NCBI GenBank assembly: GCA_963775685.1
Contig: CAVZJV010000014.1
Span: forward strand, 1,984,001 to 2,048,000
Source of the DNA: Candidatus Bathyarchaeota archaeon
GTDB taxonomy: Archaea; Thermoproteota; Bathyarchaeia; Bathyarchaeales; Bathycorpusculaceae
DNA: 64,000 nt
Reading direction: 5' to 3'
In this document: in pieces, positions 14,912-61,534 of the stretch
Layout of the letters: each line of letters begins with the position of its first letter
Position numbering within the stretch: the first letter of the stretch is position 1
The notes under the pieces: generated by a model
What the model was told of the DNA's origin: nothing
The model's input: the letters and a program-made list of their open reading frames with translations, nothing else
Databases searched by the model: none
Translations under genes and position numbers: made by a program

Positions 14912-15910
14912 TTAGATTGGGTAAGCTCCGCAGGTCTTGCAGAACTGAATTTTGGTTTTGATGTAGCTGTGGCACTTGGGGCACTGTATGGCGCCTTCAA
15001 CTTTGGGGAAGATGTCTTTGGGTTTGCCGAATTTTTCGCGGAAGACCTCGTAGTAAAGCAACTGTTCTTTGTCTTGGATTTCTACGTCGTCTGCTGCTTT
15101 AATGGCGGCTTTTTTCTCGTTAAACTCTTTGTCAGTTATCATGTCGTTGAAGTATGTGCGCAGTGTTTCTGTTCCGGTGCCTGCTTCCAAAGGTGCTTTG
15201 GGTCTCCAAATGATATCTTTAGGAATGACGTCTTCGTAGGCTTTACGCAAAATCCACTTGCCGTATTTTATGCCATTTTGCATGTTAATCTTATATTTGA
15301 TGGGTAGCTTCATTGCCCAATCCATGAACTCTGGATCTCGGTAGGGTGCTTTGATTTGCATTCCAAGAGATTCCGCCATCGGGAAAGAAGAGAAGCCCAT
15401 TTCCGCCCACATTTCTTGTTGCTTCACTGCAAACTGTTCTTCTGAGAGGTGGAATTGCCAAGGGTAACCAAAAAGCTCATCTAATGCATCGCCGGTGAAA
15501 ACAGTTTTAATGCCTTTAGGTTTTAGCAGAGTTAAGCCGATATAGACAGGAAGGCTATTTCTGATTTCCATGGGGTCATATTTTTTGAGTGCTTCCACAA
15601 CTTTGGGGTAAAACTTCATTACATCTTCTTTACCGAACTGGTAAGTTTCATGTTTTAAGTGCAATAGTTCAACCATTTTTTTAACGTATTCTGTGTCTTT
15701 GGGTTGTCCATGTTTGAAGGCTAAGGTCAGGCATGGAATGTCAGGTTTGTATTTGACCGCTTCGTAGGCGATTATTTGAGTGTCAGTTCCAGCGGAGAAG
15801 AGGAAGCCATCAGCCATATTTTTTTGTACGACTTTGTTTACTAATGTTTTGACTTCGGGTAGTAGTTTGCTGACTTCTGAATCGTTAACTGTCATTTCTA
15901 TCCCTCGCAT
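14912..15910 (-). CDS. Asparagine-synthase C-terminal-domain-only PP-loop ATPase with a C-terminal Cys4 zinc ribbon
   Basis: FLFSAGTDT (variant SGGxDS), TGDALDELFGY, GKWILRKAY, WRPKAPLEAGTG, CPKC...CKTC; no glutaminase domain. Confidence 0.8.
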   Translation of the reverse strand: MRGIEMTVNDSEVSKLLPEVKTLVNKVVQKNMADGFLFSAGTDTQIIAYEAVKYKPDIPCLTLAFKHGQPKDTEYVKKMVELLHLKHETYQFGKEDVMKFYPKVVEALKKYDPMEIRNSLPVYIGLTLLKPKGIKTVFTGDALDELFGYPWQFHLSEEQFAVKQQEMWAEMGFSSFPMAESLGMQIKAPYRDPEFMDWAMKLPIKYKINMQNGIKYGKWILRKAYEDVIPKDIIWRPKAPLEAGTGTETLRTYFNDMITDKEFNEKKAAIKAADDVEIQDKEQLLYYEVFREKFGKPKDIFPKVEGAIQCPKCHSYIKTKIQFCKTCGAYPI

Positions 15911-16111
15911 TACAGTGTTTGTCTTTCACCAGGTATTTAAGTTTATCCGTATGCCTATAAAAGCTGGTAATTAGTAAACATATGTGCTGAAACAAATCAT
16001 AACACTGAACAATCGATCATTAATGACATTAATCCATTTATCAACGCGTCAAGGAACTACGTTTAAATGCACAAGAACAAACCCCATAAGCCATAAAACG
16101 AGGTAACCACC

Positions 16112-16864
16112 TTGAAAGTCAGCGTACTACACATGAAAATACGCACAACATTGGACAGCAACCTGACAGCCGCAAAAGCTGCCATCCTAAGAGCCTCAAA
16201 ACAAAAACCAGCTCTAATCGCCCTACCTGAATACTTCACCGTTCCCAACTGCATGGCTGACTTCACCGACGCCTCAAAAATCAGCAAAGAAACCGCTGCC
16301 AAAACTATGACTTTTCTCCAAGTAATCTCCCAAAGTATCGGCGACATATACCTTCTCGGCGGCACGGTGATTCAAGAAGACCGTGGCAAATACTACAATA
16401 CCAGTACGCTATGGAGAAATGGCAAACTTTTGGCGAAATACAAAAAAATTAACCCCATTAAAGCGGAAATAGACGCAGGGGTTGCTAGGGGAACCCAACC
16501 GCTTGTGTTGAATACAGAATTGGGCAAGCTTGCGATGATTGTGTGCGCTGACACTTTTGACCCCCCACTCGTTAAAAAAGTCGCAGAACTTGGTGCCGAA
16601 ATCGTTTCTTTGCCAGTAGCTGCCATGGGAACCCACCCAACCGTTAAAGGTCACCCACTGACTGAGGGCATAGCAAGAGATTATGGCGTGTTCATACTCA
16701 AAGTTGGAAACGTTTGCTCGAACATGCGTGGCGGCAGAAGCGCTATCATAGCGCCTTGGGGGATCCTTGGTGAAGTGACGGATTCACCAGAAGACTCTGT
16801 CTTATCAGCAGATTTGGATATGGCGCGGTTAAGAGAATATCGAAAAAAGCTCAGTAAATCTTAG
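16112..16864 (+). CDS. Carbon-nitrogen hydrolase (nitrilase superfamily)
   Basis: E-K-C triad in LPEYF, YKKIN, IVCAD; GRSAIIAPWG. Confidence 0.88.
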   Translation: MKVSVLHMKIRTTLDSNLTAAKAAILRASKQKPALIALPEYFTVPNCMADFTDASKISKETAAKTMTFLQVISQSIGDIYLLGGTVIQEDRGKYYNTSTLWRNGKLLAKYKKINPIKAEIDAGVARGTQPLVLNTELGKLAMIVCADTFDPPLVKKVAELGAEIVSLPVAAMGTHPTVKGHPLTEGIARDYGVFILKVGNVCSNMRGGRSAIIAPWGILGEVTDSPEDSVLSADLDMARLREYRKKLSKS

Positions 16865-18030: not shown

Positions 18031-19065
18031 TTGGAAGAAATCGGCCTTGCAGACAACGTTAAACTGATTGTTAAAGACAATGTACTAGCCATTTTTTGTG
18101 ATAGTGCTTTAAAGACAGTTAGTTCAGCAATCTATAATGGCGGGTGCAATCAGGTTAAAGCTGTCCTCAATGTAGGCGTGCCAGAAGGATACAGTGACCT
18201 CTCCTTGCACCTTGACCCGCTCGAACTAATCACTTCATCGGCGGCAAAAGTTGGGTTAACCAACGATTACCTTGCCATGGTTACTGCCGCCAAAATCCAA
18301 AACTACAGCATAGTCACAAAGCAAACCGAAGGTTTTTCAGTTAGCGTCGCAGCAACAGCAGGCTGCCAACACGGCGAATCATCCGGCGAAGAGATGGATG
18401 TTGAAGAAATCGTTGGAACCATAAACATCATTGTCCTAATCGACGGAAACCCGTCGGAATCCTGCATGGTTGCAACATTAATCACTGCAACTGAAGCCAA
18501 ATCAGCGGCGCTAAGGGATTTTGATGTACGTAGTCGATACACGGGTGACTCGGCAACTGGTTCAGTAACTGATAGCGTTACAATAGCCTCAACTTGTAAA
18601 GGTAAATTGTTAATTTTGGGTGGTCCTCCTTCCAGGCTTGGCAAGGTGGTTGGGTATTGTGTTAGGACGGCTGTTTCCGAGGCATTGCTTAAGCAGGAGC
18701 CATTTTGGGGTAACCGGTCGGTTTTAGATAGGCTAAAAGAGCGACATTTGCCGCCTGAGAAATTGGTTGCTGAAGTTTCTAAAGTTCAGGGCTTAGCTCT
18801 TAACACTGACAGACTTGGGGAGATTCTGAAAAAAGACCCGTTTGCAAGTGCTAATTTGCTAGCTGCAGCAAAGATGGATGACGATTACAAAAAAAACCTA
18901 TTGCCAACCGATTTTAAGGATTGGAAAGAAATTAGCAAGTGTTTCGCTTCATCCGACACAAAATTTGATGCCTCAAAATCACCAAACTACGATTCAGTTG
19001 ATTTGTCGCCATTCCTAAAAAATGCGTTGATCAATATTCTCAAAAAAATCCAATCTAACTGTTAA
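18031..19065 (+). CDS. cbiZ: Adenosylcobinamide amidohydrolase CbiZ with a C-terminal CobZ/PgpA-like remnant
   Basis: VSSAIYNGG, MVTAA, ATAG, GTINII, TATEAKSAAL, ATGSVTDS; extra ~120-aa C-terminus (LDRLKER...DP...LLAAAKMDDD). Confidence 0.85.
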   Translation: MEEIGLADNVKLIVKDNVLAIFCDSALKTVSSAIYNGGCNQVKAVLNVGVPEGYSDLSLHLDPLELITSSAAKVGLTNDYLAMVTAAKIQNYSIVTKQTEGFSVSVAATAGCQHGESSGEEMDVEEIVGTINIIVLIDGNPSESCMVATLITATEAKSAALRDFDVRSRYTGDSATGSVTDSVTIASTCKGKLLILGGPPSRLGKVVGYCVRTAVSEALLKQEPFWGNRSVLDRLKERHLPPEKLVAEVSKVQGLALNTDRLGEILKKDPFASANLLAAAKMDDDYKKNLLPTDFKDWKEISKCFASSDTKFDASKSPNYDSVDLSPFLKNALINILKKIQSNC

Positions 19066-19132: not shown

Positions 19133-20035
19133 TTGAAATTCGGCACATTCCTCTATCAACCCGAGCCTGTTGAAGGCGTCGATTACAATTTCTACCGTTT
19201 AAAATCTGAATCAGGAATCGTCGGAAAACCTAACCCAGAAATGTACACTAACATCGCATGTTTTGGTGACAATTACATGGCAGCAAAACGCCCCGATTGG
19301 AATTCTGTAAGCTCATGGGGCCCTGCGCTGCGTACCAACAAGCGCTACAATCTCCGCTGGGATGTCGTATGCATGACTAACCCAGAAGCTAGAGAATACA
19401 ACTTGAAAATCATCGCTGAATCAGCCAAAGTCACTCCGGGTATCAGCATTAGCAGCCAGCATTTTGCTGACCAGCATTTTTGCACCTGCCCACGGTGCAT
19501 TGAACAACAACGTAAAAGCGGTTTAAAGTGGCTTGATTGGCGAGCAAAAGTTGTAACTGATTTCCTCGCTGAAGTTAAAGAAATAGTCTCCGGCAAGCCA
19601 CTTTTTGTCAACCTCTTGCCTGACCCCTTACTGGGCAGAGAACGCTTCGGCTACGACTTTGAAGCCATGGCACAATATGCTGACTACTTCGTCATCCCAA
19701 TGTTCAGCAAATCCTACCCGACACCATGGTACTGGGAAACCATTGCAAGAGGCTTCAAGAGCATCCTAAAGAAACCAATGTTCGTTAACTTCTACGTTCG
19801 CGGTCCAAACGAAACATGGGACACCGTCGCACCGACAAAACAAGTCATGACTGTAGCTACACGTGTTGCTAGACAAGGTGTAGACGGCATAGTCTTTCTC
19901 GCAGAGAAAGCCGATTACATTAGGGAATTCCAGAAGAACGCAGTTGCGGACAAAGAAACACGCGAGTTCCTCAAAGGTCACAACGGCGACGAGGTCTTAG
20001 AGCTTTTCAATCGTTGGGAAAAACTCTACAAATAG
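19133..20035 (+). CDS. Hypothetical TIM-barrel / glycoside-hydrolase-like protein with CxCxxC (paralogue of 16851..17735)
   Basis: VVCMTNP, HFADQHFCTCPRC, WLDWRAKVVTDFL, PDPLLGRERFGYDF, DYFVIP. Confidence 0.65.
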   Translation: MKFGTFLYQPEPVEGVDYNFYRLKSESGIVGKPNPEMYTNIACFGDNYMAAKRPDWNSVSSWGPALRTNKRYNLRWDVVCMTNPEAREYNLKIIAESAKVTPGISISSQHFADQHFCTCPRCIEQQRKSGLKWLDWRAKVVTDFLAEVKEIVSGKPLFVNLLPDPLLGRERFGYDFEAMAQYADYFVIPMFSKSYPTPWYWETIARGFKSILKKPMFVNFYVRGPNETWDTVAPTKQVMTVATRVARQGVDGIVFLAEKADYIREFQKNAVADKETREFLKGHNGDEVLELFNRWEKLYK

Positions 20036-20070
20036 TTTCCCCTTCTTCTTTTAGCTTTTTATTTTTTGCC
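20036..20070 (+). terminator. Archaeal-type T-rich terminator
   Basis: Pyrimidine/T run (tttcccttcttcttttagctttttattttttg) immediately after the stop of 19133..20035. Confidence 0.45.
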
Positions 20071-20149
20071 TATAACTTTAAGTTAAGGTTATCCCAATTC
20101 TATCCATTGTAACCGGCCATTTTACCAAAATTCTGACTTACCATAAAGG

Positions 20150-20416
20150 TTGGAAGGAAAACGAATGAAGACAATAAAGTGTTGGAAAAGGTTAAGCCAT
20201 GAGTGCGGTTACCTAAACGATACTACAGGGCAAACTGTAGTTGTTTTGAAGAAAGAATACAGCAAAAACTACCACGTAGTATTGTTCGAGTGTGGACAAA
20301 ACCAAAAAGATGACGGCAGAACAATTTCCCCTGAATATTCCACAAAGACTAAAGCCGACGCATTTGCCGATGGTTGGATGCTAAAACACCCAAATGGCAT
20401 GGAATCACCCGCTTAG
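20150..20416 (+). CDS. Hypothetical protein
   Basis: 88-aa ORF with protein-like composition, isolated in an intergenic-rich region. Confidence 0.6.
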   Translation: MEGKRMKTIKCWKRLSHECGYLNDTTGQTVVVLKKEYSKNYHVVLFECGQNQKDDGRTISPEYSTKTKADAFADGWMLKHPNGMESPA

Positions 20417-20703
20417 ATTATCCGAATGTTAAACCAGCGTTAATGGCTTGAATTAATCATTAAGCTTGCATTCTTTCTTTTTAAACAGTCTTTGTTAAGA
20501 TATACTCAAAAACTGCCCTAATAAAGGACAAAAGCCTGAAGGCATTTCCTGTAGTTAATATTATCTTATCCATAATATACTTAAAAAGAATCATAAAATG
20601 AGTTGGTTTTGGCCCAAGCGCGAAGAAACTCTTCAATTAATCTGCTGGATGGCAATAAAATAAGAGAAATAAAACTTGTTAATGGATTTATTATAGGAAA
20701 AAA

Positions 20704-20862
20704 TTAGGCAGCAGCCTTAATTTGGGCATCTATTTTTCTCTGGCGTTTTTGCAGCAACTTTCGTTTGTTTGCTTTAGGGTTTGGTTTTACTCTGTAAACT
20801 TTGCCGTGAGTGTTTGTGTAGTATTTTTTTCCTTTGGACTTTAGTTTGGTCTTTTTATTCAA
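20704..20862 (-). CDS. Small highly basic protein (52 aa), missed by the ORF track
   Basis: TTG start preceded by AAGGAGGGA; MNKKTKLKSKGKKYYTNTHGKVYRVKPNPKANKRKLLQKRQRKIDAQIKAAA*. Confidence 0.7.
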   Translation of the reverse strand: MNKKTKLKSKGKKYYTNTHGKVYRVKPNPKANKRKLLQKRQRKIDAQIKAAA

Positions 20863-21088
20863 GCGTATAGTCCCTCCTTGGCTAATCAGTTGGGTTTTGT
20901 GCTATTACAATACGGCATGGCTATTTGAGTGTGCCTATAAAGGTAATTGCTTAAGGCTTATCCGTTTGGTTTTACCAATTCTTTCTGGTAAAAGTGTTAT
21001 GCCTTTATTAGTCTGGTGAACGTATATTTATTGAGCTTGTGAAAGATCAGTTTTTGCAAGAATTATCAATGGGAAGGGTTATTCTAGA

Positions 21089-21223
21089 ATGTATACTTAC
21101 GAAAAATTTATTCAAGAAAAATTTAAGTGCCGAATTTGTTCTTCAAGTTTCCAGACTCCTGACGAGCTACGAAATCACCGGATGGTGGTCCACAAAGGAC
21201 ACATGCTTGCAGGTAAACGCTAA
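21089..21223 (+). CDS. Small C2H2 zinc-finger protein (44 aa), missed by the ORF track
   Basis: MYTYEKFIQEKFKCRICSSSFQTPDELRNHRMVVHKGHMLAGKR* matches F-x-C-x2-C-x3-F-x5-L-x2-H-x4-H. Confidence 0.82.
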   Translation: MYTYEKFIQEKFKCRICSSSFQTPDELRNHRMVVHKGHMLAGKR

Positions 21224-21460
21224 CAATGGCCAAAGCAAAATAAATCATTTGAACTGATTACAAAACAACATATTTAGCCACAAAAAACATTTACGCGGTT
21301 AACATTTTACCAAACATTCGAGTAAAAGCAAAAAACTAATCAACAAGCCTTCTTTAGTCAAAGAAGGAAGGCAATCCTAGACTACAACCAGCTGCTAATT
21401 TGTTTTCGATATGTGTGTTTTCTCCATCAACTTCTGATTTTTGGATTTTAGGTTTGATTT

Positions 21461-21474
21461 AGAAAACTATATAA
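21461..21474 (+). promoter_or_regulatory. Putative BRE/TATA promoter of B12-radical SAM #1
   Basis: agaaaac-tatataa about 45 nt upstream of the start at 21518. Confidence 0.5.
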
Positions 21475-21517
21475 TCTCTCTTCGCCTACAACCCCTCACA
21501 TTAAAGGGCGAACACAA

Positions 21518-22900
21518 TTGAAGGTTACTCTAATCAATCCACCTTATCCGCCAAGTGTCCATTCTCACCCACCCTTTATACCGCTTGGCTTAGCATATTT
21601 AGGCGCAATTGCCGAACAAAAAGGACACCAAGTCAACATAATCGATTGCCAAGCCGAGAAACTAACCGACGAAACATTCCGCAACCGCATCGCACAAACC
21701 TCATCCGACGTAATTGGAGTAACTGCGACAACCTTGCTCTACAAGTCAGCTATGAAGTTAATCAATATAGCTAAACAGGTAAAACCCCACGCAGTCACCA
21801 TTCTTGGTGGTTCGCATGGAACTTTCTGGGATGAAAACGCCCTAAACGAATATCCAAGCTTAGATATGGTTGTACGAAGAGAAGGCGAAATGACCTTCAT
21901 CGAACTTCTTGAAAAATTTGAATCTAAAACCAGCCTAAACGGAGTTTTGGGTATCACTTACCGAAACGAAGACAAGATCGTCCGCAACCCCGACAGGCCT
22001 TTCATAGAAGACTTAGACTCGCTGCCATTCCCAGCCCATCACCTGTTGCCGCTTGAGAACCTAAAACATAACGGCAAAATCCTGTTCCCCTTAATCAGTA
22101 GCCGAGGTTGCGTTTTTTGGTGCGACTTTTGTAGCACTGTACGCATGTTCGGCAGAGGATACCGTTGGAGAAGCCCCAAAAACGTCGTTGACGAAATGCA
22201 ACTCATCCATGACAAATATGGTATTGACCAAGTTACTTTCTACGATGACGCTTTCACCGTTGACCGAAACCGAGTGATAAAAATCTGCGAAGAACTGCAC
22301 ACGAGAAAACTGATCATGAAATGGGATTGTGGTACCCGTGTGGACATGGTGGATCGAGAACTACTCCAAACAATGCGTGATGCAGGGTGCATCGCGGTTT
22401 GGCTAGGTGTCGAATCAGGTTCAGAAGTTATTCTTGGTGCGATGAACAAAAAAATCAAGCTCGAACAAACACGTTTGGCCTACAAAACAGCCCATGACGT
22501 AGGATTAATGACGATCGCTAACGTAGTCTTGGGTTTTCCAGGAGAAACTGAACAGACCGCCAAAGCGACCATACGCTTCGTTAAACAACTAAACCCCGAA
22601 GACGTCGGCTTCTATGTCGCTACACCCTACCCAGGCACCCCAATGTATGAGGAAGTTAAGAAGAACGGTTGGCTCCGAGTTACAGACTTTGACAAGTATG
22701 ACACAGCTGGACCAACATTTGAAACTCCCCAGTTAAGTATGGAGAAACTCGCTGAAATCCGTAGCAAAGCTTACCAGCAATTCTACCTTCGACCAGGATA
22801 CGTGATTCATATGATGCGTCTGGGTGGAGTTTATGGAAAAGCAGCGGTAAAAACTTCAGGAGCTTACCTGCTGAGGGCTCTCCACCTGAAGTACTGGTAG
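21518..22900 (+). CDS. Cobalamin-binding radical SAM protein #1 (subgroup A)
   Basis: N-terminal B12-binding domain (LINPP, PLGLAYL, GGSH, EGE); SSRGCVFWCDFC; GVESG; TPYPGT. Confidence 0.92.
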   Translation: MKVTLINPPYPPSVHSHPPFIPLGLAYLGAIAEQKGHQVNIIDCQAEKLTDETFRNRIAQTSSDVIGVTATTLLYKSAMKLINIAKQVKPHAVTILGGSHGTFWDENALNEYPSLDMVVRREGEMTFIELLEKFESKTSLNGVLGITYRNEDKIVRNPDRPFIEDLDSLPFPAHHLLPLENLKHNGKILFPLISSRGCVFWCDFCSTVRMFGRGYRWRSPKNVVDEMQLIHDKYGIDQVTFYDDAFTVDRNRVIKICEELHTRKLIMKWDCGTRVDMVDRELLQTMRDAGCIAVWLGVESGSEVILGAMNKKIKLEQTRLAYKTAHDVGLMTIANVVLGFPGETEQTAKATIRFVKQLNPEDVGFYVATPYPGTPMYEEVKKNGWLRVTDFDKYDTAGPTFETPQLSMEKLAEIRSKAYQQFYLRPGYVIHMMRLGGVYGKAAVKTSGAYLLRALHLKYW

Positions 22901-23313: not shown

Positions 23314-24225
23314 TTACATGAACATCTTGTAGATTGGATGAGCCTCTTCGAGGGGTCTTGTTCCAAGGTCAGCTGCTGCCGATGCGATATATGTGTCTGT
23401 CACTGCGACTGCTGGGAATACCCATTCAGCTTGTTCTGCTGGACCGATCATAAGCCAGTTTGCGCCAGCCATTTGCATGATTGAGTTTGTTGAGGTTCTG
23501 CAGCCAGGGCGGAATTCTTTAGCGACGTTTGCTTTGACCCATCCCATGGTGGTGACAACGTTTCCGCTGCCTAAGCCCGTTGGATGACCATACTTCTCTT
23601 TCATGACAGGAATAGTTCTGACGGCTGTGCCCATGTCTGGTTCGAACGCGGGGATGGCTGTGTCGATGAGTGGTTTTGTGATGCCGCCTTTCTCTGCTAA
23701 TGCGAGCGCTTCAACTATGACCTTCATTTTGCCTTCCATGGTTGTGTCTTTAGGGTCATCAGCAAGCACTATGGACATTTTAATGCCGCTGTCTTTTAGA
23801 TTTGCAAGTTCTACGTCAGTAACGCCTTTGTAGACTGAATTGTAAAGACATCTATCTGCAAGACCCATCTTTTTAGCTAAGGTTGCTGCTCCCATACGGG
23901 TCTTTGGACTCATTGCATCGAGCATGAGTGGTGCATCAGTGTGTTTTGGTACGAAGTCGATGTATTTTTCGAATGCGGCTTCTGTTGTGCCCACGATGTC
24001 GAGAGCAAATTTGACACCAGTTATGTCGCTTTGGGTCTGGCATGTGTTAATGATTTGCTCGGCTGCTTTAGCATCAAAAATTCCTTTATTTGCATCGGTA
24101 ACCATTTTTTGGCCTAACCAAAAGATGGAGCCGATCAAAAAGGTTGGTAGTTCTCCCGGTTGACCGCCTATTTTTGCTCCAGCGAGATCATATATTTTTT
24201 GTTCGGTATTGAACTTAAAGGACAT
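23314..24225 (-). CDS. mtrH: MtrH/MtgA-like methylcorrinoid:tetrahydropterin methyltransferase
   Basis: FKFNTEQK, KIGGQPGELPT.LIGSIF, LYNS, PLIDTA, G.PTG.G..N, GANW.M.GP. Stand-alone: no other mtr subunits nearby. Confidence 0.88.
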   Translation of the reverse strand: MSFKFNTEQKIYDLAGAKIGGQPGELPTFLIGSIFWLGQKMVTDANKGIFDAKAAEQIINTCQTQSDITGVKFALDIVGTTEAAFEKYIDFVPKHTDAPLMLDAMSPKTRMGAATLAKKMGLADRCLYNSVYKGVTDVELANLKDSGIKMSIVLADDPKDTTMEGKMKVIVEALALAEKGGITKPLIDTAIPAFEPDMGTAVRTIPVMKEKYGHPTGLGSGNVVTTMGWVKANVAKEFRPGCRTSTNSIMQMAGANWLMIGPAEQAEWVFPAVAVTDTYIASAAADLGTRPLEEAHPIYKMFM

Positions 24226-49583: not shown

Positions 49584-49828
49584 CTCCAGCTGTATGTTTT
49601 AGGCGTAAGGTTGCTTTATCAACGTTGCGATAGAACGGGTTGGGGATTTTTTTAATAAAAATTAAACCTTTTACTTGCTTGTTTGAAGATGTAGCATTTA
49701 ATGCCCTTAAAAAAAAGTAATAATTAAAATCTGTCCTATGGTTTGAGATGGGCATCTCAAACGTCTTTTTGGTTAGTCAAGAAACTTCACTAATTTTAGT
49801 CAAGAGACCTATACAAGAAACCTTTTAA

Positions 49829-50586: not shown

Positions 50587-50669
50587 GACCTTTTCCCATG
50601 GCAAGGTGCAACTGCTTATAATACTAAATTTCTTAAGCAAGGGCAAAACAATTAGAACGTTGATTTGCT

Positions 50670-53728: not shown

Positions 53729-55279
53729 TTGTCGGCGGATTTAGCTCTTATCGAAGCGAATGTTAGGACAATGAACCCACGTCAGCCCTTTGCAGAAGCT
53801 GTGGCCATAAAAGAAAATAAAATTTTCAAAGTCGGCACAACCCAAGAAATAAAAAAGCTAAGCGGAAAGAGCACAAAAGTCATCAACCTGAAAAGAAAAA
53901 CAGTAATTCCCGGCTTGATCGACACTCACATTCATTTGGCAGATTTTAGCAGATGCTTAATGTGGCTTGACTTAACAACTGCCCAATCAATCAAGGAATT
54001 GCAAAACCTCCTAAAAGAAAAAGCGAAGCAAACTCCGGCTGGGAAATGGATTGTGGGCCGTGGCTGGAACGAGAACGATTTCAAAGAAAAACGTCTATTA
54101 ACCTTGAAGGATTTCGATGCGGTCTCACCAGACAATCCAGTGATTCTCTACCATGGATCTGCCTACGTTTGTGCCGCAAATACCAAAGCATTAACCATGG
54201 CAGGGGTAACAAACCAAACAACAGCTCCATCAGGCGGAACCATAGACAAAACTGCAACTGGCGAACTAACTGGGATTTTTCGGGGCACCGCCACCAACCT
54301 GGTTTGGCAAGCCATGGCAGAACCCACGTTGAAGGAGTTGACGGATGCTACCGCGTTGGCATGTCACCAAATTGTGCAAGCAGGAATAACCAGCATAGAT
54401 TGGATAATCCATTCAGAAAACGAGCTTAATCTTATCCAGTTACTCCACGAACAAGAAAAACTCCCAATTAGAGTTAATGTGATAATACCCTACGAACTCT
54501 TGAAGAATGCAAGCAAATTTAGGTCAACCGATCTTTTGAGGCTTCGTTTGGGAGGCGCTATTATCTTCACCGACGGCTATATAGATTCTAAAACCGCTGC
54601 GCTCATGCACCCTTATAGCGACAACCCAGATAACAGCGGCAAGATGATGTGTACCCAGCAAGAATTGGCGTCTTGGGTAGAGCAGGTTTTGGCGTTGGGT
54701 CTTCAGCCTGTTATTCATGCGATGGGCGACAAAGCAATTGACACAGCCTTAAATGTGACCGAAAAATCTTCCAAGAAAGTTAGGTTACGCATTGAGCAGG
54801 CAGCACTCCTAAACAATGAACTAGTAAAACGCCTCAAAGCTCAAGACATCGTTGTTTCAGTTCAGCCAAAAATGGTTCCCACTGAATTCACGGTTTGGTT
54901 AGCCACTGAGCATTTGGGGGTTGAAAGAGCAAAATGGCTTCATCCTTTCAAAACTCTGCTAAACGCGGGTGTCAGAGTTGTTGGTGGTTCAGACTGCCCC
55001 ATGGAGCCCCTAAACCCGTTTCTGGGAATGCAAGAAGCTGTAAATAGGGAAAGTTATCCTGAGCAACGATTAACTGTTGAAGAAGCTTTGCGCATGTACA
55101 CGCTGGATGCTGCCTATTGTTCAAGTGAAGAAACCATTAAGGGTTCCATTGAAGAAGGAAAACTTGCCGATATAACAGTCCTGTCAAACGACCCATCTTT
55201 GGTTCCACCATTTAAAATCCAAGACATCAAACCAGAAATGATAATTATAGATGGAAAAATAATTTTTTCGAAGCCCTGA
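53729..55279 (+). CDS. Amidohydrolase-3 (YtcJ-like) metal-dependent hydrolase with variant active site
   Basis: PGLIDTHIH, GRGW, HAMGD, GSDCP, KGSIEEGKLAD; RIEQA replaces the usual RIEH. Confidence 0.85.
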   Translation: MSADLALIEANVRTMNPRQPFAEAVAIKENKIFKVGTTQEIKKLSGKSTKVINLKRKTVIPGLIDTHIHLADFSRCLMWLDLTTAQSIKELQNLLKEKAKQTPAGKWIVGRGWNENDFKEKRLLTLKDFDAVSPDNPVILYHGSAYVCAANTKALTMAGVTNQTTAPSGGTIDKTATGELTGIFRGTATNLVWQAMAEPTLKELTDATALACHQIVQAGITSIDWIIHSENELNLIQLLHEQEKLPIRVNVIIPYELLKNASKFRSTDLLRLRLGGAIIFTDGYIDSKTAALMHPYSDNPDNSGKMMCTQQELASWVEQVLALGLQPVIHAMGDKAIDTALNVTEKSSKKVRLRIEQAALLNNELVKRLKAQDIVVSVQPKMVPTEFTVWLATEHLGVERAKWLHPFKTLLNAGVRVVGGSDCPMEPLNPFLGMQEAVNRESYPEQRLTVEEALRMYTLDAAYCSSEETIKGSIEEGKLADITVLSNDPSLVPPFKIQDIKPEMIIIDGKIIFSKP

Positions 55280-55615: not shown

Positions 55616-57064
55616 CTAGGTCATTTTCAGTAGAATCTTTATGGTTTTTATGGGGTTTCGGGCAGCTCTCAAAATTTTGGCTCTGGTAAAGGTTGGGTTA
55701 GCCATGTTGGCTCTTACGCATAGTTCCTGTAGCTCTTGGGCTGTGAACTGTGGCGTTTCAATCAAAGGCTCCGTCGCTGCCAGGGCGAAGTCACAGAATC
55801 CTTCACGAAGGTACCCGCCTTCTTTTGCCTGTTCGTAGAGGGCTGTTCCGTAGAGGGGCATGGCGATGCTGAATATGAGGCTGTCTGCGCCGAGGCTGCG
55901 GAGTTTGTAGGCGAATTTTATGGTTTCTTCGATGTCTGCTTTGGTTTCCCCGATCACGCCCAGTACGAAGAAGCAGCCGACTTTGATGCCGACTTTTTTG
56001 CATAAAACAACTGCCTGCTCAACTTTCTTCAAATCTAAATTCTTGCCGATGACCTCATTAACGACGCGCTGAACGCCTGATTCTGGGGCTACTCGGATTT
56101 TTTTGCAGCCGGATTTCTTCATTTTTCGCAGAAGCGGCTCGTCTAAGGTATCGGCGCGAACACCGTTTGGTGTAAACCACTCGATGTGCAAGCCGCGTTG
56201 AACGATTAAGTCACAGATGTCCGCCATACGCTTCTTGTCCAGTGTCATGTTTTCGTCGTAGAAATCAACCTGCTTAACGCGATAGGTCTTCACTATATGT
56301 TCGAGTTCATCAACGACGTTTTTTGCGCTTCGAGCTCGCCAAGTTCTACCCCAGAGGATGCAGACGGAGCAGAAGACGCAGCTGTAGGGGCAGCCTCTGG
56401 TGGTTGTGACGATTGTCCAGGGTTTGCTTATTTCGCCCCTTAGCGGGTTTTCTTTGACGGCTTCATTGTAAACTTCCATAGGCAACAGGTGCCTAGCAGG
56501 AAAAGGCAAAGAATCTAAATCTTCGATAAACGCGCGTTTTCCCGTAAGAGTGGATTTACCCTTTTCTTTAAAACCCAAACCATCTATCATAGCCAAATCT
56601 TGCTTTCCCGAAGCAAGCGCGTCGACGAGTTCGGAAACGGTGTTTTCTGGCTCACCGATAACAACATAATCAACATCAGATTCTGAAAGGCAAGCTTCGG
56701 GTCTCGCCGTAGGATGCTGACCCATCAACACCACTACAATCTTGCTATTGACAGCTTTGACTGCTTGGATCACATCGAACGCGGTTCTTGACCAACCCGA
56801 AAAAGGAATCTCCACAACCACTAAATCGGGATTCCACTGCCTAACTCGTTCAGCGATGGTTTCTGAACTTAAACCCACACGGTACTTTGAATCATCCAGT
56901 TCTGCGAGGTTCCTCCACCCTTCCGTTGGAGCATCGATGATACTTACAATGTGCTTTTTTTCCAAAACGGCTGCGACTGAGGCTAAGACGATGGGTGGAA
57001 AAACGTTGGGTTTTCCCCATGCTTTGGGTTGAATGCGGGGAGGATTAATCAAGCAAACACGCAT
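55616..57064 (-). CDS. Cobalamin-binding radical SAM protein #6
   Basis: LINPP, PPIVLASVAA, GQHPT, GEPE, TTRGCPYSCVFC, TPNGVRAD, APESG, PLYGT. Confidence 0.92.
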   Translation of the reverse strand: MRVCLINPPRIQPKAWGKPNVFPPIVLASVAAVLEKKHIVSIIDAPTEGWRNLAELDDSKYRVGLSSETIAERVRQWNPDLVVVEIPFSGWSRTAFDVIQAVKAVNSKIVVVLMGQHPTARPEACLSESDVDYVVIGEPENTVSELVDALASGKQDLAMIDGLGFKEKGKSTLTGKRAFIEDLDSLPFPARHLLPMEVYNEAVKENPLRGEISKPWTIVTTTRGCPYSCVFCSVCILWGRTWRARSAKNVVDELEHIVKTYRVKQVDFYDENMTLDKKRMADICDLIVQRGLHIEWFTPNGVRADTLDEPLLRKMKKSGCKKIRVAPESGVQRVVNEVIGKNLDLKKVEQAVVLCKKVGIKVGCFFVLGVIGETKADIEETIKFAYKLRSLGADSLIFSIAMPLYGTALYEQAKEGGYLREGFCDFALAATEPLIETPQFTAQELQELCVRANMANPTFTRAKILRAARNPIKTIKILLKMT

Positions 57065-57115: not shown

Positions 57116-58120
57116 CTAAATGGGCATAAACCAGAACAACCGCACAAGAACGATGACGCCGACGCAGATAAGCCCCCAAAGAACAATCGTCACATCCCTG
57201 ATCTTTAGAGCCCCCAAAATTTTATTTCCAGTCAACGGTTCCTGAGCGTCGCCAAGAATGTACTGTCCGGGCTTTTCGAGCTGAATTCGGAGTGCTCCTG
57301 CCACTGCTGCCATCGGCCACCCATGGTTGCGGCTGGGCGTTTTTTTGTGGTCTCGTCGCGCGACTCTCCAAGCGTTCCCAGCATCCATCCGAAGAATAGC
57401 TGCGGCTACAATCATAAGTAGAGCCGTCAAACGCGTAGGAACGTAATTGACAAAGTTGTCCAGGTTAGCGCTAAACCATCCCGTGTTGATGTGCTCTTTA
57501 GTCTTGAAGCCTACCATACCGTCTAAGGTGTTGATTGCTCGAAACGCAATGGCGCCGGTCACTCCGAACAGAGCGAACGACATCATGGGAGAAAGTTTGA
57601 AGTCGATGAGGTTTTCTGACATGGATTCGATTACAGCGCTGCCCATCTGTGAGCCATTTAGGTTTTTGGATTCTCTGCGAGAGAAGTGGCTGTATTTTTT
57701 TGCTTCAGGAAGATTGCTTTGGTCGATGGCTTTTGCTGTTGCTTTAGCCCAATCGGTCTCAAGTTTTATACATATGGTCATTTTTACTAAGATTATGGCG
57801 ATGAAACCGTATACCGCAATGTTGACGTAAAATGATACGTACGTGTTTATTGCCCATAACCCGAAGAAGACTGGAAGCGCAAAAGCAGCAATCACTGTTA
57901 AACCAAGCAGGGTGCCGAGGAACTTTTCGGTTTTAGCGTTGGGGCTCTTGAACGCAGGTTCGATTTTTTTGGTGAACTTTCCCATCAAAACTGTGGGGTG
58001 CAGCTTGAAAACTAACTTGTCTGGGGTGTTGGGTGAGGGGTCGCCCAAAACTAGATCCAAAAGGATAGCTAAGATTAGAATTACGATTGCGACGAGTACG
58101 TTTATGAGGTTTGGCTCCAA
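57116..58120 (-). CDS. cbiB: Adenosylcobinamide-phosphate synthase CbiB/CobD
   Basis: LDLVLGDP, HPTVLMG, ESMSEN..D, RAINTLDGMVG, G.FSA.LD...NYVP.RL, LEKPG.Y.LG. Confidence 0.92.
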   Translation of the reverse strand: MEPNLINVLVAIVILILAILLDLVLGDPSPNTPDKLVFKLHPTVLMGKFTKKIEPAFKSPNAKTEKFLGTLLGLTVIAAFALPVFFGLWAINTYVSFYVNIAVYGFIAIILVKMTICIKLETDWAKATAKAIDQSNLPEAKKYSHFSRRESKNLNGSQMGSAVIESMSENLIDFKLSPMMSFALFGVTGAIAFRAINTLDGMVGFKTKEHINTGWFSANLDNFVNYVPTRLTALLMIVAAAILRMDAGNAWRVARRDHKKTPSRNHGWPMAAVAGALRIQLEKPGQYILGDAQEPLTGNKILGALKIRDVTIVLWGLICVGVIVLVRLFWFMPI

Positions 58121-58299
58121 GATAACCCAAACTTGCTTTTTGAGATACTTCCAGTAAACAGTTAATATCGATTACGGTTAATAAGACGCAGAGACTATTA
58201 TCTGAAAAACACGTACATTTTGATAGTCAGAGCTTTCGAGTGTGGTTGGTTTTAGGCTTGGTTTTTTATGTGTGGACGCCTGACATGTGGTTAGGTTTG

Positions 58300-58743
58300 G
58301 TGCCTGACTTGGTGGCTGATGAAGAGCTAAATTCAACGTTGTTTAACACGTACGTGTTTCTTGTTAAGACCGGAAAGCCTTTGGGTCCTCGGGATTTGAT
58401 GCGTGGAGTCAATCTCAGCAGCCCAAGTGTTGCCTATCGTAACTTGCAGAGGCTGATGGATTTGGGGTTAGTTGCCAAAGATGAATACGGCAACTATTTA
58501 GTCAAAAAAAGGGTCGGTATGAACGGATATGTTTGGGTTGGAAAAACGCTCATACCCCGCTTTGCCGTTTTCGGCTTCATTTTCGTCGGGGTCTTAATCG
58601 CTGAAATCGCCGTTTTGATTCCTCATTTGTTCGCGGGTTCCCCCATAGAAGAGTCATTCTGGCTATTAACGGTGGTTACGGTTGTTTCAGCTACGGTTTT
58701 TCTAGCCGAGGCAATACATTTTAGGAAGAAACTGCGACGTTAA
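58300..58743 (+). CDS. Membrane-anchored wHTH transcriptional regulator
   Basis: PLGPRDLMRGVNLSSPSVAYRNLQRL..LG..KDEYGNY plus two TM helices. Start uncertain (ORF open from 58240). Confidence 0.75.
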   Translation: MPDLVADEELNSTLFNTYVFLVKTGKPLGPRDLMRGVNLSSPSVAYRNLQRLMDLGLVAKDEYGNYLVKKRVGMNGYVWVGKTLIPRFAVFGFIFVGVLIAEIAVLIPHLFAGSPIEESFWLLTVVTVVSATVFLAEAIHFRKKLRR

Positions 58744-58755
58744 TTGAAAGGATCA

Positions 58756-59814
58756 TTAATGCCAATATTTGGGTTCAATGCACTCTTTATCAATTAGTGA
58801 TGGAAACAGATTTAGTGGCCAAGCAGGCGGTACCCTTGTTAGATGGGCTGTCGTAGATTCTACTCCTTTTATTTTTCTGATTTTGTCGTCAGCGTCGAAC
58901 ATCTGTTCAAAATCTTCAAGGAAAAGTCCACAGTATAGGTCATAGGCTCCAATCAGCCTTATTATGACTACCAAGTTGGGGATTTCCAATAGTTGAGAAT
59001 ATATTTCGTTGATCTTGCTTCGGTTGGACACTTTTATGTACAAATTTGCGAGAGCCTTGTACCCAAGCTTAGAGAGGTCGAGTGTTATGCTGGAAGAAGT
59101 AAACAAGTTATTTCTTAGTTTTTTGTATCTTTGAATTACGGTTTTGCTCGAAATATCCAGTTCTGTAGCTATTTTTTTGAATGGTGTACGCGCATTTTCT
59201 GCAAGAATCTTGGCGATTTTTTTGTCGATTTCGTCTAGTTTCACCGCTCCTTCTTGTTGATGGTTGACCGATGAAACTTTAACTTCCTGGTTTTTTCCAT
59301 CTGAAGGTTTTATGACCAAGTTTTGCGGGTATTCTACGTTAGCAGCCTTGGCCCAGATTAATGCATCTACATGTGTAATGTATTGGTTAGCTTCAAAATC
59401 TTCGATAATTTCATGCAACTTTTTGAGGTCTCGCAGAGCTACTTTACCAAAAAAGTTGTAGTTGCCCCATGGGCCGACTAATCCGGCAATATATGGCTTG
59501 GTTTCAAGGAACTCTGTTACTTCTTTTGTATCTTCAATGGCATTGGTTATGCACAGATCTACTATGTGTTGGTACCCTAAACAGTGAGGGTTGACGAGCA
59601 TCACTTCGCCATTGATTACACCCTCTTTCCATAGTCCTTTATAGCGCATTCTAACGGCTGTCACAGTAATTTCGCAAGCGGCGGCAATATCGGTGAAAGT
59701 GGTTCGGGATTCCAATAAAAGTAATTTTAGTATTTTTGCATCATTTTCGTCAATTTTTACTCGATTTGCCAAAGTTGTCTTGCCCATCCATAAAGCGTGG
59801 AATCTTAACATCAA
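58756..59814 (-). CDS. Tandem (double) Lrp/AsnC-family regulator
   Basis: Two HTH-RAM units: IDENDAKIL..L..ESR..F..IA and LDEIDKKIAKIL..NARTPF..IA, G.YDL. Confidence 0.85.
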   Translation of the reverse strand: MMLRFHALWMGKTTLANRVKIDENDAKILKLLLLESRTTFTDIAAACEITVTAVRMRYKGLWKEGVINGEVMLVNPHCLGYQHIVDLCITNAIEDTKEVTEFLETKPYIAGLVGPWGNYNFFGKVALRDLKKLHEIIEDFEANQYITHVDALIWAKAANVEYPQNLVIKPSDGKNQEVKVSSVNHQQEGAVKLDEIDKKIAKILAENARTPFKKIATELDISSKTVIQRYKKLRNNLFTSSSITLDLSKLGYKALANLYIKVSNRSKINEIYSQLLEIPNLVVIIRLIGAYDLYCGLFLEDFEQMFDADDKIRKIKGVESTTAHLTRVPPAWPLNLFPSLIDKECIEPKYWH

Positions 59815-60148
59815 AAACGTGGTGCTTTATATAAGATTTTTCAAATCTTGCATGGAAAATGGGCTTAGTGTTGTCTAAGCAGTTGAATCATTTGAAATTA
59901 TTTCTGATTTGTATCCATAACATGTTTTTAATATCGGTAATCATCGTCATGCTAATCATCATAGGCGTAATCCTTATGATGACCTTATGATGAAGGTCCG
60001 CAAACAATAAGCCAGATAAACACAATAAAGAAAATATTTCCCCATTCATTTTTAGTATTCGAGCTTCTCTGTAACTCTCTTCCAATAAGACCCTTGAAAA
60101 ACAATCGAGTTAGGAGCAAAGAGAAGGCTATATCTGAATTGGTTTTTG

Positions 60149-61534
60149 CTATTTCCTTCTAAGCTTCAGTTTAATATCGGCAAATAGGTTGGCTGCGAAA
60201 ATCAACGCGGTAGATACCTTGAACCTTCTTTTCTTATTCCAGAGAAATGCCCAGCGCAGATAATAATGATGGAATGCGCCTTCCCGCAGCTTGCCAAGAT
60301 CCTTCATGCTAAGCCAAGGCGTTTCAAATATGGGATGCGTGGTGTCGTACATGTCAAAGTCAGTCACTCTAAGCCATCCCTTCTCCTTGACCATATCGTA
60401 CATGGGAGTTCCCGGGAAAGGCGTTGCAACGTTGTAGAAGCCTACGTCGTCGGGAGCGATTTTTTCTACGAACTTGACGGTTTTCCAAGCACTCTTTTTG
60501 GTTTCGCCTGGGAAGCCCAAAATAACGTTCGGAACCGGTTTTAGGCCGAGTTCTCTGACCCACCCGAGTACCTTGATGGTTAATTCGGGGCTTATTCCTT
60601 TTTTCATTGCATCTAAAACTTGCTGTGTGCCCGATTCAACACCGAACCAAACAGTGATGCATCCCGCCTCCTTCATCTTTGCAAGCAGTTCCTTAGTTAT
60701 CATATCGACGCGTGTTCCACAGTTCCACTGAATCTTTAAACCTCGCTTTAGGATTTCACCGCAGAGTTCCTCAGTTCGAGGTTGATCAACCGTAAAAGCG
60801 TCGTCGCAGAAAGTAAACTTACTAATCCCATAAGTCTTGTGCAATACCTCTAATTCGTCAACAACGTTTTTTGGGCTACGCATGCGGTACTTTCGTCCAT
60901 GCATCCTGACTGTCGTGCAGAACTCACACCAGTACACACAGCCTCGGCTAGTTGTTAAGTACAAGACATCTTCGAGTTCGCGGAACTTCTCCATAGGCCA
61001 GAGGTGACGAGCTGGAAAAGGTAGCCTGTCTAGATCTTCAATGTAGGGCCTATCTGGGTTTTGCAGGATTTTACCATCTTTTCGGCATGTGGTGCCTAAT
61101 ACGTCGTGGTAGGGTCTTTCTGACTCTATCCTCTGCGCCAGCTCCAGCATCGTGTTTTCGCCTTCTCGGCGCACTATGATGTCTAATTCTGGGCATTCTT
61201 GGAGCGCTTGTTCATCCCAAAAAGTAACGTGGGGACCGCCAGCGATGGTTATGCAGTTTGGGCAAGTCTCTTTTGCAATCTTTACCAGTTTCATTGCAGA
61301 CTGGTATGTAAGTGTAGACGATGTAACCCCAACGATGTTTGGTTGACGCTTCGTAATCTCGTTCCTAAAATCCTCCGTTGAAAGCTTAAGCACTTGGCAA
61401 TCGACTACGTCCACTTTGTAGTTATTTTTCTCTAAGACCGCGGCTATATACCCTAAACCTAACAGTGCAAAGGGCATATGCATTGCGGCGCCAACAGGAG
61501 CGGATGGGTTAACCAAAGTTACATAGGGCTTCAT
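60149..61534 (-). CDS. Cobalamin-binding radical SAM protein #7 (subgroup A)
   Basis: LVNP, LGLGYIAA, GGPHVTFWD, TSRGCVYWCEFC, FGVESG, ATPFPGTPMY. Confidence 0.92.
   Translation of the reverse strand: MKPYVTLVNPSAPVGAAMHMPFALLGLGYIAAVLEKNNYKVDVVDCQVLKLSTEDFRNEITKRQPNIVGVTSSTLTYQSAMKLVKIAKETCPNCITIAGGPHVTFWDEQALQECPELDIIVRREGENTMLELAQRIESERPYHDVLGTTCRKDGKILQNPDRPYIEDLDRLPFPARHLWPMEKFRELEDVLYLTTSRGCVYWCEFCTTVRMHGRKYRMRSPKNVVDELEVLHKTYGISKFTFCDDAFTVDQPRTEELCGEILKRGLKIQWNCGTRVDMITKELLAKMKEAGCITVWFGVESGTQQVLDAMKKGISPELTIKVLGWVRELGLKPVPNVILGFPGETKKSAWKTVKFVEKIAPDDVGFYNVATPFPGTPMYDMVKEKGWLRVTDFDMYDTTHPIFETPWLSMKDLGKLREGAFHHYYLRWAFLWNKKRRFKVSTALIFAANLFADIKLKLRRK

Follow-up and report, generated by a model that had tools for sequence, protein, structure and literature searches.

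A stretch of 64,000 nucleotides from Candidatus Bathyarchaeota archaeon (GenBank assembly GCA_963775685.1, contig CAVZJV010000014.1, positions 1,984,001 to 2,048,000; here the window) is crowded with genes for radical S-adenosylmethionine (SAM) enzymes, interspersed with genes of cobamide (B12) metabolism, of amide formation and breakage, and of methyl and electron transfer. It belongs to a genome (G000) of 3.06 Mb in 14 contigs, an estimated 96.9% complete, where it lies at G000:C14:1984001-2048000 on a contig of 2.47 Mb, adjoined downstream by a flank that we call L001. An original prediction saw here ten radical SAM enzymes that would multiply methylate and amidate one scaffold, with their own supply of SAM, B12, methyl groups and electrons. 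Pfam and NCBIfam scans of 52 open reading frames (ORFs) of the window, which had been called mechanically, recovered every class of gene that it named, each at the place where it had been put. Independent assemblies, some of them genomes in a single contig, contain this gene set too; because of this, and of the length of the contig, the chimeric assembly that the prediction had allowed for is unlikely.

The most conspicuous component is a battery of B12-binding radical SAM enzymes (B12-rSAM). A hidden Markov model built from the seven window paralogues was run over the 5157 ORFs of the genome, family members being those that scored at least 185 bits. It found 14 of them, eight within 47 kb (C14:2005518-2052304), seven of these in the window, a clustering with a binomial p of 3.2e-10. 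All eight combine PF02310 with PF04055, as expected of class B radical SAM enzymes, and keep the CxxxCxxC motif, its cysteines (C198/C202/C205) being invariant in the alignment. They are 460-514 residues long and only 30-60% identical to one another. None of the B12-rSAM, SPASM or HemN-like proteins of the window reaches an NCBIfam equivalog cutoff, in keeping with the claim that the enzymes are uncharacterised. The top NCBIfam match of seven of the eight aligned B12-rSAMs is BchE (the eighth, L001:2880-4304, lay outside that scan), at 150-250 bits against a TIGR02026 cutoff of 481, so that an identity with BchE was rejected; the highest value, 250 bits, belongs to B12rSAM_1. The six family members outside the cluster, as well as C14:604983, have no NCBIfam match at cutoff either. 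Among the NCBIfam matches listed, no model is named for Grs, Gmm, Cgm/Pgm or Ted, and a protein atlas returned for B12rSAM_3 generic B12-rSAM clusters alone.

These paralogues are not the product of a recent burst. In a maximum-likelihood tree, four orthogroups with 97-100% support are common to G000 and to Ca. Bathyarchaeum tardum (G026, a member of another genus, whose name it shares with G027), so that the family diversified before these two lineages split, and the cluster appears from the tree to hold at least four old paralogue lineages. B12rSAM_1, with congener orthologues at 82-89% identity, belongs to a clade of types 1, 3 and 7 (support 100/100); B12rSAM_2 groups with a B. tardum orthologue of 49% identity (97/92); B12rSAM_4 and B12rSAM_8 group with B. 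tardum 458471, and B12rSAM_6 with B. tardum 459843 (both 100/100). As the annotated start of B12rSAM_2 overlaps SPASM_2, its true start is probably further downstream.

The battery is accompanied by three SPASM enzymes and one HemN-like enzyme, again short of the cutoffs of named families. Identity with AhbD/NirJ was rejected for all three SPASM proteins, which score 204, 216 and 305 bits (SPASM_1, SPASM_2 and SPASM_3) against an equivalog cutoff of 500. The HemN-like protein gives 190 bits with HutW (cutoff 400) and 159 with HemW (cutoff 205). SPASM_1 and the HemN-like enzyme have orthologues (52-57% and 47-64% identity, respectively) in the clusters of G026, G027 and G030, and that of SPASM_2 in B. 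tardum is 55% identical. SPASM_3, which lies in the flank, deserves particular attention. Its match to AhbD, the best it has, spans residues 118-466, with CxxxCxxC at residue 127, and it is preceded by an extension of 115 residues that is conserved in 15 orthologues, with C30/C33/C53/C56 invariant. An AlphaFold2 model places six helices between residues 7 and 105 (predicted local distance difference test, pLDDT, of 66-82 in blocks over residues 11-100). Gms, the synthase of glycerol monoalkyl glycerol tetraethers, is described, in the portions of the literature consulted, as a homologue of AhbD extended at its N-terminus by about 100 residues that form a six-helix domain, and as encoded beside B12-rSAM genes (PMC11214058, PMC11186832). 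As modelled, SPASM_3 fits this published architecture, with its AhbD-like core, its SPASM domain and its predicted six-helix N-terminal domain.

The flank also holds a second link to lipids. Beyond the eighth B12-rSAM with its AKR-Fer4 partner and a class I methyltransferase come SPASM_3 with DUF362, a block of glycosyltransferases (GT2-GT2-GT1), CobD-like, CobY-like and CobS-like genes and, at the end, an operon ending in Tes', a paralogue of the tetraether lipid synthase Tes. Tes' passes the NF045702 equivalog over its full length (464.5 bits, cutoff 450), while canonical Tes at C14:1961454 scores 674.2 bits and shares 36% identity with it; as a diverged member of the family, Tes' may have a different function. 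Genes of glycerol dialkyl glycerol tetraether (GDGT) synthesis are thus associated with the cluster in two ways, Tes' lying near it and the Gms-like SPASM_3 within it. In six of six genomes (G000, G003, G028, G026, G027 and G030) a distance of 13-20 kb separates the Tes' orthologue from a B12-rSAM cluster, and the five genomes other than G000 have a second Tes-family gene located elsewhere; the cluster near Tes' in G027 comprises two B12-rSAMs and CbiB' only. The order of epimerase, UbiA' and Tes' is that of G000 in G026 and G027, and in G027 and G030 Tes' is contiguous with SPASM_1, the HemN-like gene, SPASM_3, DUF362, GT1, GT2, GT2, unk181, CobD', CobY' and CobS'.

The third component is a second set of genes for the last steps of cobamide assembly. 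Canonical CbiB, on contig C11, scores 294.5 bits and is 41% identical to CbiB' over the full length; it is paired there with canonical CobD. The de novo ring pathway occupies one locus of C11 (HemA, HemL, HemB, HemC, HemD, CobA, CbiA, CbiX/C, CbiD, CbiE, CbiT, CbiL, CbiF, CbiG and CbiH, with CbiMQO), and a canonical CobZ/Dph6-like/CobT-CobS-CobY group stands just beyond Tes', outside the radical SAM cluster. Since this canonical set exists elsewhere, the CbiB, CobD, CobS and CobY of the cluster (the CobD-like decarboxylase at 287.7 bits, just under the cutoff of 290.6) are second, lower-scoring copies. It is these copies that travel with the radical SAM genes. At 38 distant loci, the nearby CbiB (14 cases) and CobD (15 cases) match the cluster copies best and the canonical copies in none. 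Two CbiB genes are present in four of five other genomes, CbiB' always within the cluster, and the fifth, a single-cell assembly, shows CbiB' alone. CbiZ-like genes of 29-31% identity adjoin the clusters of G027 and G030. The original claim of a co-located B12 supply is thereby borne out for CbiB', CobD', CobY', CobS' and the only CbiZ. Together with CbiZ the primed genes form what we take to be a complete archaeal route of cobinamide salvage and remodelling: all enzyme families of the route from CbiZ through CbiB and CobY to CobS occur in the cluster, which differs from that route in that its copies, CbiZ excepted, are diverged paralogues, with the canonical sets lying outside. The simplest reading would be that of a cofactor-finishing module kept beside its client enzymes.

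How widely is this assemblage kept? Orthology was judged by best BLAST matches. Within the genus, each of the 15 genomes has 6-19 members of the family, and several have 7-9 copies gathered in 50-70 kb; ten genomes that represent the order's other families have 0-5. The stretch from the AsnB-like gene to UbiA' counts 53 genes, of which 51 were matched in the equivalent region of one or more of the three congeners compared gene by gene (G003, G014 and G012), mostly at 57-99% identity and in an order rearranged by inversions; TrmB and a 107-residue ORF were unmatched in those regions. The adjacency of CbiB' and B12rSAM_6 is retained in all three. At a greater distance, a core of about 37 kb in B. 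tardum, at 35-65% identity, contains six B12-rSAMs, SPASM_1, SPASM_2 and SPASM_3, the HemN-like gene, AKR-Fer4, CbiB', Amidohydro_3, RnfD with unk179, the methyltransferase, GT1-GT2-GT2, unk181 and CobD'. There SPASM_2, Amidohydro_3, CbiB' and B12rSAM_2 follow each other on one strand, and Amidohydro_3 usually adjoins CbiB' in other genera. Gene order is heavily shuffled between the genera, and the flanking genes match scattered places in G000, so that the conservation is not one of general synteny. The scattering of orthologues that would have spoken against the original prediction was therefore not observed: the gene set recurs in distant genera. To count partners, B12rSAM_3 (387 relatives in a collection of species-representative genomes) was the anchor of locus searches with a profile from a 3-sequence subgroup alignment. 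Loci with an anchor at most 68% identical were taken as distant (38 of 79; L016-L053, L068, L071 and L090 were excluded), and genes within 10 kb on either side were counted (Table 1). Because many loci are truncated by contig ends, the counts are lower bounds.

The class as a whole was surveyed in an even draw of 71 genomes at E <= 1e-80, a threshold of 1e-150 being too strict (3/71 matched). At least one family member was present in 51/71 genomes, and five or more in only 7/71. Orthologues of CbiB' (at least 65% identical) and of Tes' (at least 66%) were found in G000, G013 and G060 only, the three genomes of the draw with 11, 7 and 6 B12-rSAMs. As these all belong to one family they count as one lineage, the Ca. 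Bathyarchaeum group being the second lineage with the cluster. Given the small number of genomes with five or more copies, and lone copies standing among unrelated neighbours, the supercluster is a property of particular lineages and not of the whole class.

Table 1. Features of the region. Coordinates are those of the window unless a locus prefix is given; the last column gives the number of distant loci (of 38) with the gene near the anchor.
Feature	Coordinates	Strand	Assignment and remarks	Distant loci
MetK, bacterial/eukaryotic type	4768-5982	-	Sole SAM synthetase detected in the genome	0
AsnB-like synthetase domain without GATase	14912-15910	-	Asn_synthase C-terminal domain, PP-loop	0
CN_hydrolase	16112-16864	+	Divergent pair with the AsnB-like gene	0
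CbiZ (adenosylcobinamide amidohydrolase)	18031-19065	+	PF01955, 154.8 bits; sole genome copy	
B12rSAM_1	21518-22900	+	PF02310 + PF04055; type 1/3/7 lineage	
MtrH-family methyltransferase	23314-24225	-		2
Small corrinoid protein	24246-24671	-		2
Two polytopic membrane proteins (787, 768 aa)	24778-29477	+	10-12 predicted N-terminal transmembrane (TM) segments and a large soluble part	1
SPASM_1	29582-30688	-	AhbD/NirJ-like radical SAM-SPASM	
RnfD/NqrB-family membrane protein	31516-32598	+	PF03116; single copy	6
RnfC	32765-33915	+	Two overlapping ORFs, 32765-33319 and 33184-33915; single copy	
unk179	34111-34650	+	Small membrane protein, ~3 TM (crude hydropathy scan); no Pfam match	
HemN-like (class C type) radical SAM	34890-36173	-	PF04055 + HemN_C; single genome copy	
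B12rSAM_2	40230-41774	-	PF02310 + PF04055; annotated start overlaps SPASM_2	14
SPASM_2	41650-42729	-	AhbD/NirJ-like radical SAM-SPASM without N-terminal extension; upstream of B12rSAM_2, same strand	10
big862_PQQ	42927-45515	+	PQQ_2 218 bits, Beta-prop_ACSF4 242 bits; double beta-propeller	
Dph6like_1	45612-46307	+	PF01902 (Diphthami_syn_2), PP-loop	
B12rSAM_3	46449-47861	+	PF02310 + PF04055; search anchor	
B12rSAM_4	47871-49253	+	PF02310 + PF04055; begins 10 nt after B12rSAM_3; type 4/8 lineage	
Dph6like_2	51247-51975	-	Diphthami_syn_2, PP-loop ATPase paralogue	8
B12rSAM_5	52058-53527	-	PF02310 + PF04055; Dph6like_2 next, same strand	
Amidohydro_3	53729-55279	+	PF07969, 336 bits; single copy	9
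B12rSAM_6	55616-57064	-	PF02310 + PF04055; 52 nt downstream of CbiB', same strand	15
CbiB'	57116-58120	-	TIGR00380 233.9 bits, cutoff 165.9; diverged second adenosylcobinamide-phosphate synthase paralogue	14
Membrane-anchored wHTH protein	58240-58743	+	Putative regulator; genus-conserved	
Fused double Lrp/AsnC protein	58756-59814	-	Putative regulator; genus-conserved	
B12rSAM_7	60149-61534	-	PF02310 + PF04055; clade with B. tardum 461596, support 100/99	
B12rSAM_8	L001:2880-4304		PF02310 + PF04055; 2.9 kb past window end; partner AKR-Fer4	
AKR-Fer4	Flank		Partner of B12rSAM_8	11
Class I methyltransferase	Flank			14
SPASM_3	Flank past window		PF04055 + PF13186; adjoins DUF362 gene	13
DUF362	Flank		Adjoins SPASM_3	12
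GT1	Flank			14
GT2	Flank			17
unk181				18
CobD'	Flank			15
Epimerase-UbiA'-Tes'	UbiA' L001:18901-19812		Tight operon directly after CobY'-CobS'	
Third Dph6-like	L095:4692-7829 span (G000:C14:2072692-2075829)		Directly before CobT-CobS-CobY, same strand	
a,c-diamide synthase	G026:C1:447708-449180 (L100:7708-9180)	-	TIGR00379 384.5 bits, cutoff 261.4; beside B12-rSAM	

Bathyarchaeia are among the most abundant archaea of anoxic sediments, soils and peat, and almost none have been cultured. Their unusual tetraether lipids (bridged, methylated, unsaturated or with a butanetriol backbone) are used as biomarkers and climate proxies, and to our knowledge the enzymes behind most of them have not been named. 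Against this background, and starting from what was observed (the genes present, their enrichment and paralogy, their conserved linkage and the domain architecture), we hold the chances to be about evenly balanced that the region is an expanded tailoring cluster for tetraether lipids of the gms-grs-gmm type, joined to a cobamide salvage module of its own and to RnfC and RnfD as a stand-alone module. The window would hold the larger part of a conserved supercluster of some 65-70 kb in certain Bathyarchaeia lineages. A first module (eight B12-rSAMs, three SPASM enzymes, the HemN-like enzyme, the Tes paralogue in its epimerase-UbiA'-Tes' operon and five glycosyltransferases) would build and tailor a special set of tetraether lipids for the membrane, whose tails might be methylated, cyclised, desaturated or cross-linked, and whose backbone or head group might possibly be changed as well. 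A second (CbiZ, CbiB', CobD', CobY' and CobS') would finish the corrinoid cofactor for the radical SAM enzymes, and a third, the RnfC-RnfD-unk179 membrane module, may deliver electrons. Among the scaffolds that the original prediction entertained, tetraether lipids, as suggested by context and architecture, gain the most from Tes', UbiA' and the Gms-like enzyme; a corrinoid is less likely, and surface proteins fare poorly. Were this correct, the Tes paralogue, the Gms-like enzyme and the 6-8 B12-rSAMs would make a short, ordered list of candidates for the enzymes of these lipids, testable in the heterologous systems in which Gmm and Ted have been studied. The second cobamide set bound to the cluster would also tie membrane tailoring to cobamide salvage, and it raises the question of why two sets of CbiB, CobD, CobS and CobY have been retained since before the lineages split.

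Known systems offer partial parallels, which we draw from their descriptions in the sections of the papers at hand. The gms-grs-gmm cluster of Thermococcus guaymasensis likewise sets an AhbD-like SPASM enzyme with an N-terminal extension beside B12-rSAMs (PMC11214058). In the present region, by contrast, the 6-8 B12-rSAMs represent at least four old lineages and are joined by two more SPASM enzymes, one HemN-like enzyme, a paralogue of Tes accompanied by UbiA' and an epimerase, five glycosyltransferases, RnfC/D and a second set for cobamide loop assembly. According to the same source, many Bathyarchaeota have Gms homologues and several copies of non-canonical 'Gmm2' B12-rSAMs in the tree of methylases acting on glycerol monoalkyl glycerol tetraethers (PMC11214058); the B12-rSAMs of the cluster may well be these genes. 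Closer in taxonomy is the Ted-Hgs-Grs system of Ca. Bathyarchaeota B1_G15, where, as far as its description goes, a Bathyarchaeal B12-rSAM encoded beside another lipid B12-rSAM acts on GDGT tails, which it desaturates, so that the chemistry of the family extends beyond methylation (bioRxiv 10.1101/2025.10.20.683597). Unlike that system, no AttH-like hydratase was seen in this cluster, and Ted homologues are described there as at least 500 residues long, versus 460-514 here. No description of the supercluster, of the Tes' paralogue or of a cluster-bound second Cob set was found in the literature consulted, in which Figures S7 and S10 of PMC11697101, not among the parts seen, may show gene positions; a search of the supplementary text of that paper for two terms returned nothing.

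Several points speak against the lipid reading or limit it. Confidence in the SPASM_3 model is moderate (mean pLDDT 70.7). The top NCBIfam matches (BchE, AhbD/NirJ and HutW) are all tetrapyrrole enzymes, though far below cutoff. Linkage is imperfect: in G027 the largest B12-rSAM sub-cluster, of four copies, lies about 185 kb from Tes', and in 12 lone-copy lineages the neighbours are unrelated, save at one locus with a neighbour of the SPASM_3 type. Independent lineages are few, since the related genomes are partly kin (G000, G003, G028, G013 and G060). A CobB/CbiA-type a,c-diamide synthase, for which G000 has no close orthologue, stands inside the B. tardum cluster. Finally, GDGTs have no carboxyl groups, and CbiB', the Dph6-like ligases, the AsnB-like/CN_hydrolase pair and Amidohydro_3 therefore lack an obvious lipid substrate; they fit corrinoid chemistry instead.

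It is this set of amide enzymes that keeps a corrinoid or tetrapyrrole scaffold a live rival, together with the B. tardum a,c-diamide synthase, a gap at CbiP and the Dph6-like gene beside CobT-CobS-CobY. The radical SAM battery would then modify the macrocycle, the CbiB'/CobD'/CobY'/CobS' set would assemble its loop and the PP-loop ligases would amidate its side chains. The loop-assembly paralogues are old, their linkage to the cluster is constant, enzymes making or breaking amides on carboxylates abound there, and the best sub-threshold family matches point the same way. Cobyric acid synthase CbiP/CobQ (TIGR00313) exceeded its cutoff in none of five genomes (G000, G003, G014, G026 and G028, three of them complete or in one contig), weak matches falling only on CbiA-type genes in a corrin pathway otherwise nearly complete. 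The Dph6-like paralogues, at 106.6, 110.6 and 140.1 bits (Dph6like_1, Dph6like_2 and the third), fail TIGR03679 (cutoff 197.3), which the true Dph6 at C14:2203969 passes with 280.5. The third is a candidate for a role in the cobamide pathway, for example replacing CbiP, and Dph6-like ligases generally may stand in for that enzyme; G026, G027 and G030 each have one copy close to the cluster. We nevertheless judge a modified corrinoid or tetrapyrrole unlikely: the tetrapyrrole-family scores are all far under their cutoffs, ring synthesis is encoded at another place, on C11, alongside a CobD-CbiB pair of its own, Cob genes beside B12-dependent clients are more simply a cofactor supply, and Tes', UbiA', five glycosyltransferases and a Gms-like architecture would be left unexplained. 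A bolder form, slightly less likely again, would have the second Cob set, the PP-loop ligases, the amidohydrolases, the AhbD-, BchE- and HemN-like enzymes and a UbiA-family prenyltransferase build a cofactor of the corrinoid or tetrapyrrole type that is peculiar to these Bathyarchaeia, so far undescribed, heavily methylated on carbon and possibly anchored in the membrane; in a related variant the extra Dph6-like ligases would replace the missing CbiP. The anaerobic benzimidazole pathway Bza (BzaC/D/E) and the bacteriochlorophyll enzymes BchE/BchM/BchG do, as here, combine B12-rSAMs with a class I methyltransferase and a prenyltransferase of the UbiA family. The Bza pathway of lower-ligand synthesis, which the original prediction had evoked, nonetheless falls away: BzaD reaches 97-141 bits against 450, and ThiC-family PF01964, to which BzaF belongs, has no match in G000 at its 96.9% completeness, so that the genome appears to lack the standard thiamine pyrimidine route as well as benzimidazole synthesis by Bza.

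The neighbourhood might also be a mosaic, its enzymes acting on several unrelated substrates and held together because all of them need cobamide, Fe-S clusters and reductant, or because they are regulated together. Both strands carry genes, grouped into many small units with differing partners (a Dph6-like gene with B12rSAM_3/4, CbiB' with B12rSAM_6, SPASM_2 with B12rSAM_2, AKR-Fer4 with B12rSAM_8). Their order is heavily shuffled across genera, the paralogues have diverged to 30-60% identity, and the PQQ/Ig surface proteins in their midst belong to a genome-wide expansion. Against a mosaic, the set holds together at 35-65% protein identity while its flanks scatter, and CbiB', Tes' and the B12-rSAM expansion co-occur in three of three genomes, with no orthologue of comparable identity in the rest of the 71-genome draw; we find it doubtful, if worth keeping in mind. 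Maturation of a ribosomal peptide, or of the secreted propeller proteins encoded nearby (in the manner of RiPPs, peptides made by the ribosome and modified after translation, or of a protein-derived cofactor), looks quite improbable. It can invoke sub-threshold matches to RiPP B12-rSAM methylases (ApyD, 135-244 bits versus 750; TIGR03975, 73-141 versus 282) and to SPASM peptide maturases, as well as large surface proteins interleaved with the enzymes, of which one, big862_PQQ, recurs in the clusters of G026 and G027. Yet no conserved small ORF resembling a precursor and no RRE/PqqD domain was found, unk104 occurs at only one of the 38 distant loci, and the surface-protein families are expanded throughout the genome. 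Radical SAM enzymes use SAM stoichiometrically, which makes them costly for bulk catabolism, and for that reason an attack of B12-rSAMs and PQQ-domain proteins on lignin-derived substrates seems very improbable here. The conserved partners moreover are Tes', UbiA', glycosyltransferases and Cob genes, not genes of aromatic degradation, and MtrH and the corrinoid protein are seldom linked. Such a role was suggested for Bathy-6, where, in the part of the study consulted, 7-20 COG1032 B12-rSAMs and many PQQ-domain proteins are reported per metagenome-assembled genome (PMC11697101).

The supply of the other inputs proved less private than had been proposed. In place of a dedicated source of SAM, metK is the only SAM synthetase detected in the genome (the archaeal type, PF01941, was not found in G000) and hence a housekeeping gene, present at none of the distant loci. 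As the methyl donor of class B methylases is SAM, MtrH and its corrinoid protein are not needed as a methyl supply; they occur at two distant loci only, are absent from the compact B. tardum cluster region, and are probably peripheral genes of one-carbon metabolism outside the core. We therefore treat metK and the MtrH/corrinoid pair as neighbours, not as members. The idea of an electron supply survives in part. RnfD and its membrane partner recur, side by side in the B. tardum cluster as well, and electron self-supply by the RnfC/RnfD module is possible. A full Rnf complex was rejected: G000 has no match to the RnfA/E family PF02508, so that RnfC (split) and RnfD, all that is present of Rnf, do not form a canonical complex. 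The separate ferredoxin of the original prediction is probably the C-terminal half of RnfC, with 2x[4Fe-4S]. In G014 and G012 the RnfC orthologue is one ORF of about 427 residues, and the split in G000 would reflect a frameshift, an assembly indel or a pseudogene.

Other genes of the region have looser ties. The AsnB-like/CN_hydrolase pair, conserved in the genus, appears from its distribution to be peripheral to the cluster. The two large polytopic membrane proteins have no Pfam or NCBIfam match and are 52-74% identical in congeners. A TM scan gives big862_PQQ an N-terminal signal/TM and a C-terminal TM segment, which predicts a surface-anchored protein; its orthologues in the G026 and G027 clusters are 47-50% identical. 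Large anchored proteins with PQQ_2 propellers and Ig-like domains lie at 37443-40028, 42927-45515 and 61909-63999 of the window and at L001:4932-7484, and belong to families with 36-44 paralogues genome-wide, with an N-terminal signal/TM and a C-terminal TM anchor. A lenient Pfam scan of the conserved unknown proteins gave nothing decisive and no PqqD/RRE domain. UbiA' has two UbiA-family prenyltransferase paralogues, C14:195460 and C14:1037752, all three with sub-threshold similarity to ChlG/BchG; a functional bchG on a fosmid of the Miscellaneous Crenarchaeotal Group is mentioned in the portion of PMC3930316 consulted.

Upstream of the window, L002 (G000:C14:1964001-1984000), beyond which canonical Tes lies, is an island of glycosyltransferase and sugar-nucleotide genes with a ninth, very divergent B12-rSAM (6547-7950, - strand), a SAM hydroxide adenosyltransferase and NifS/NifU. 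It is unmatched in the corresponding regions of three congeners, except for paralogous matches of about 27% to its B12-rSAM and glycosyltransferases. Within the window, two gene-poor stretches of about 1.4 kb each (20035-21518 and 49583-50910) contain short, unconvincing ORFs alone, Rfam at gathering thresholds having no match anywhere in the window; the first is of low G+C (0.38 for a 2-kb bin). The adenylosuccinate lyase gene (1649-2987, - strand) is split into two overlapping ORFs, as RnfC is, which suggests errors of assembly by indels rather than decay, at least for the essential lyase.

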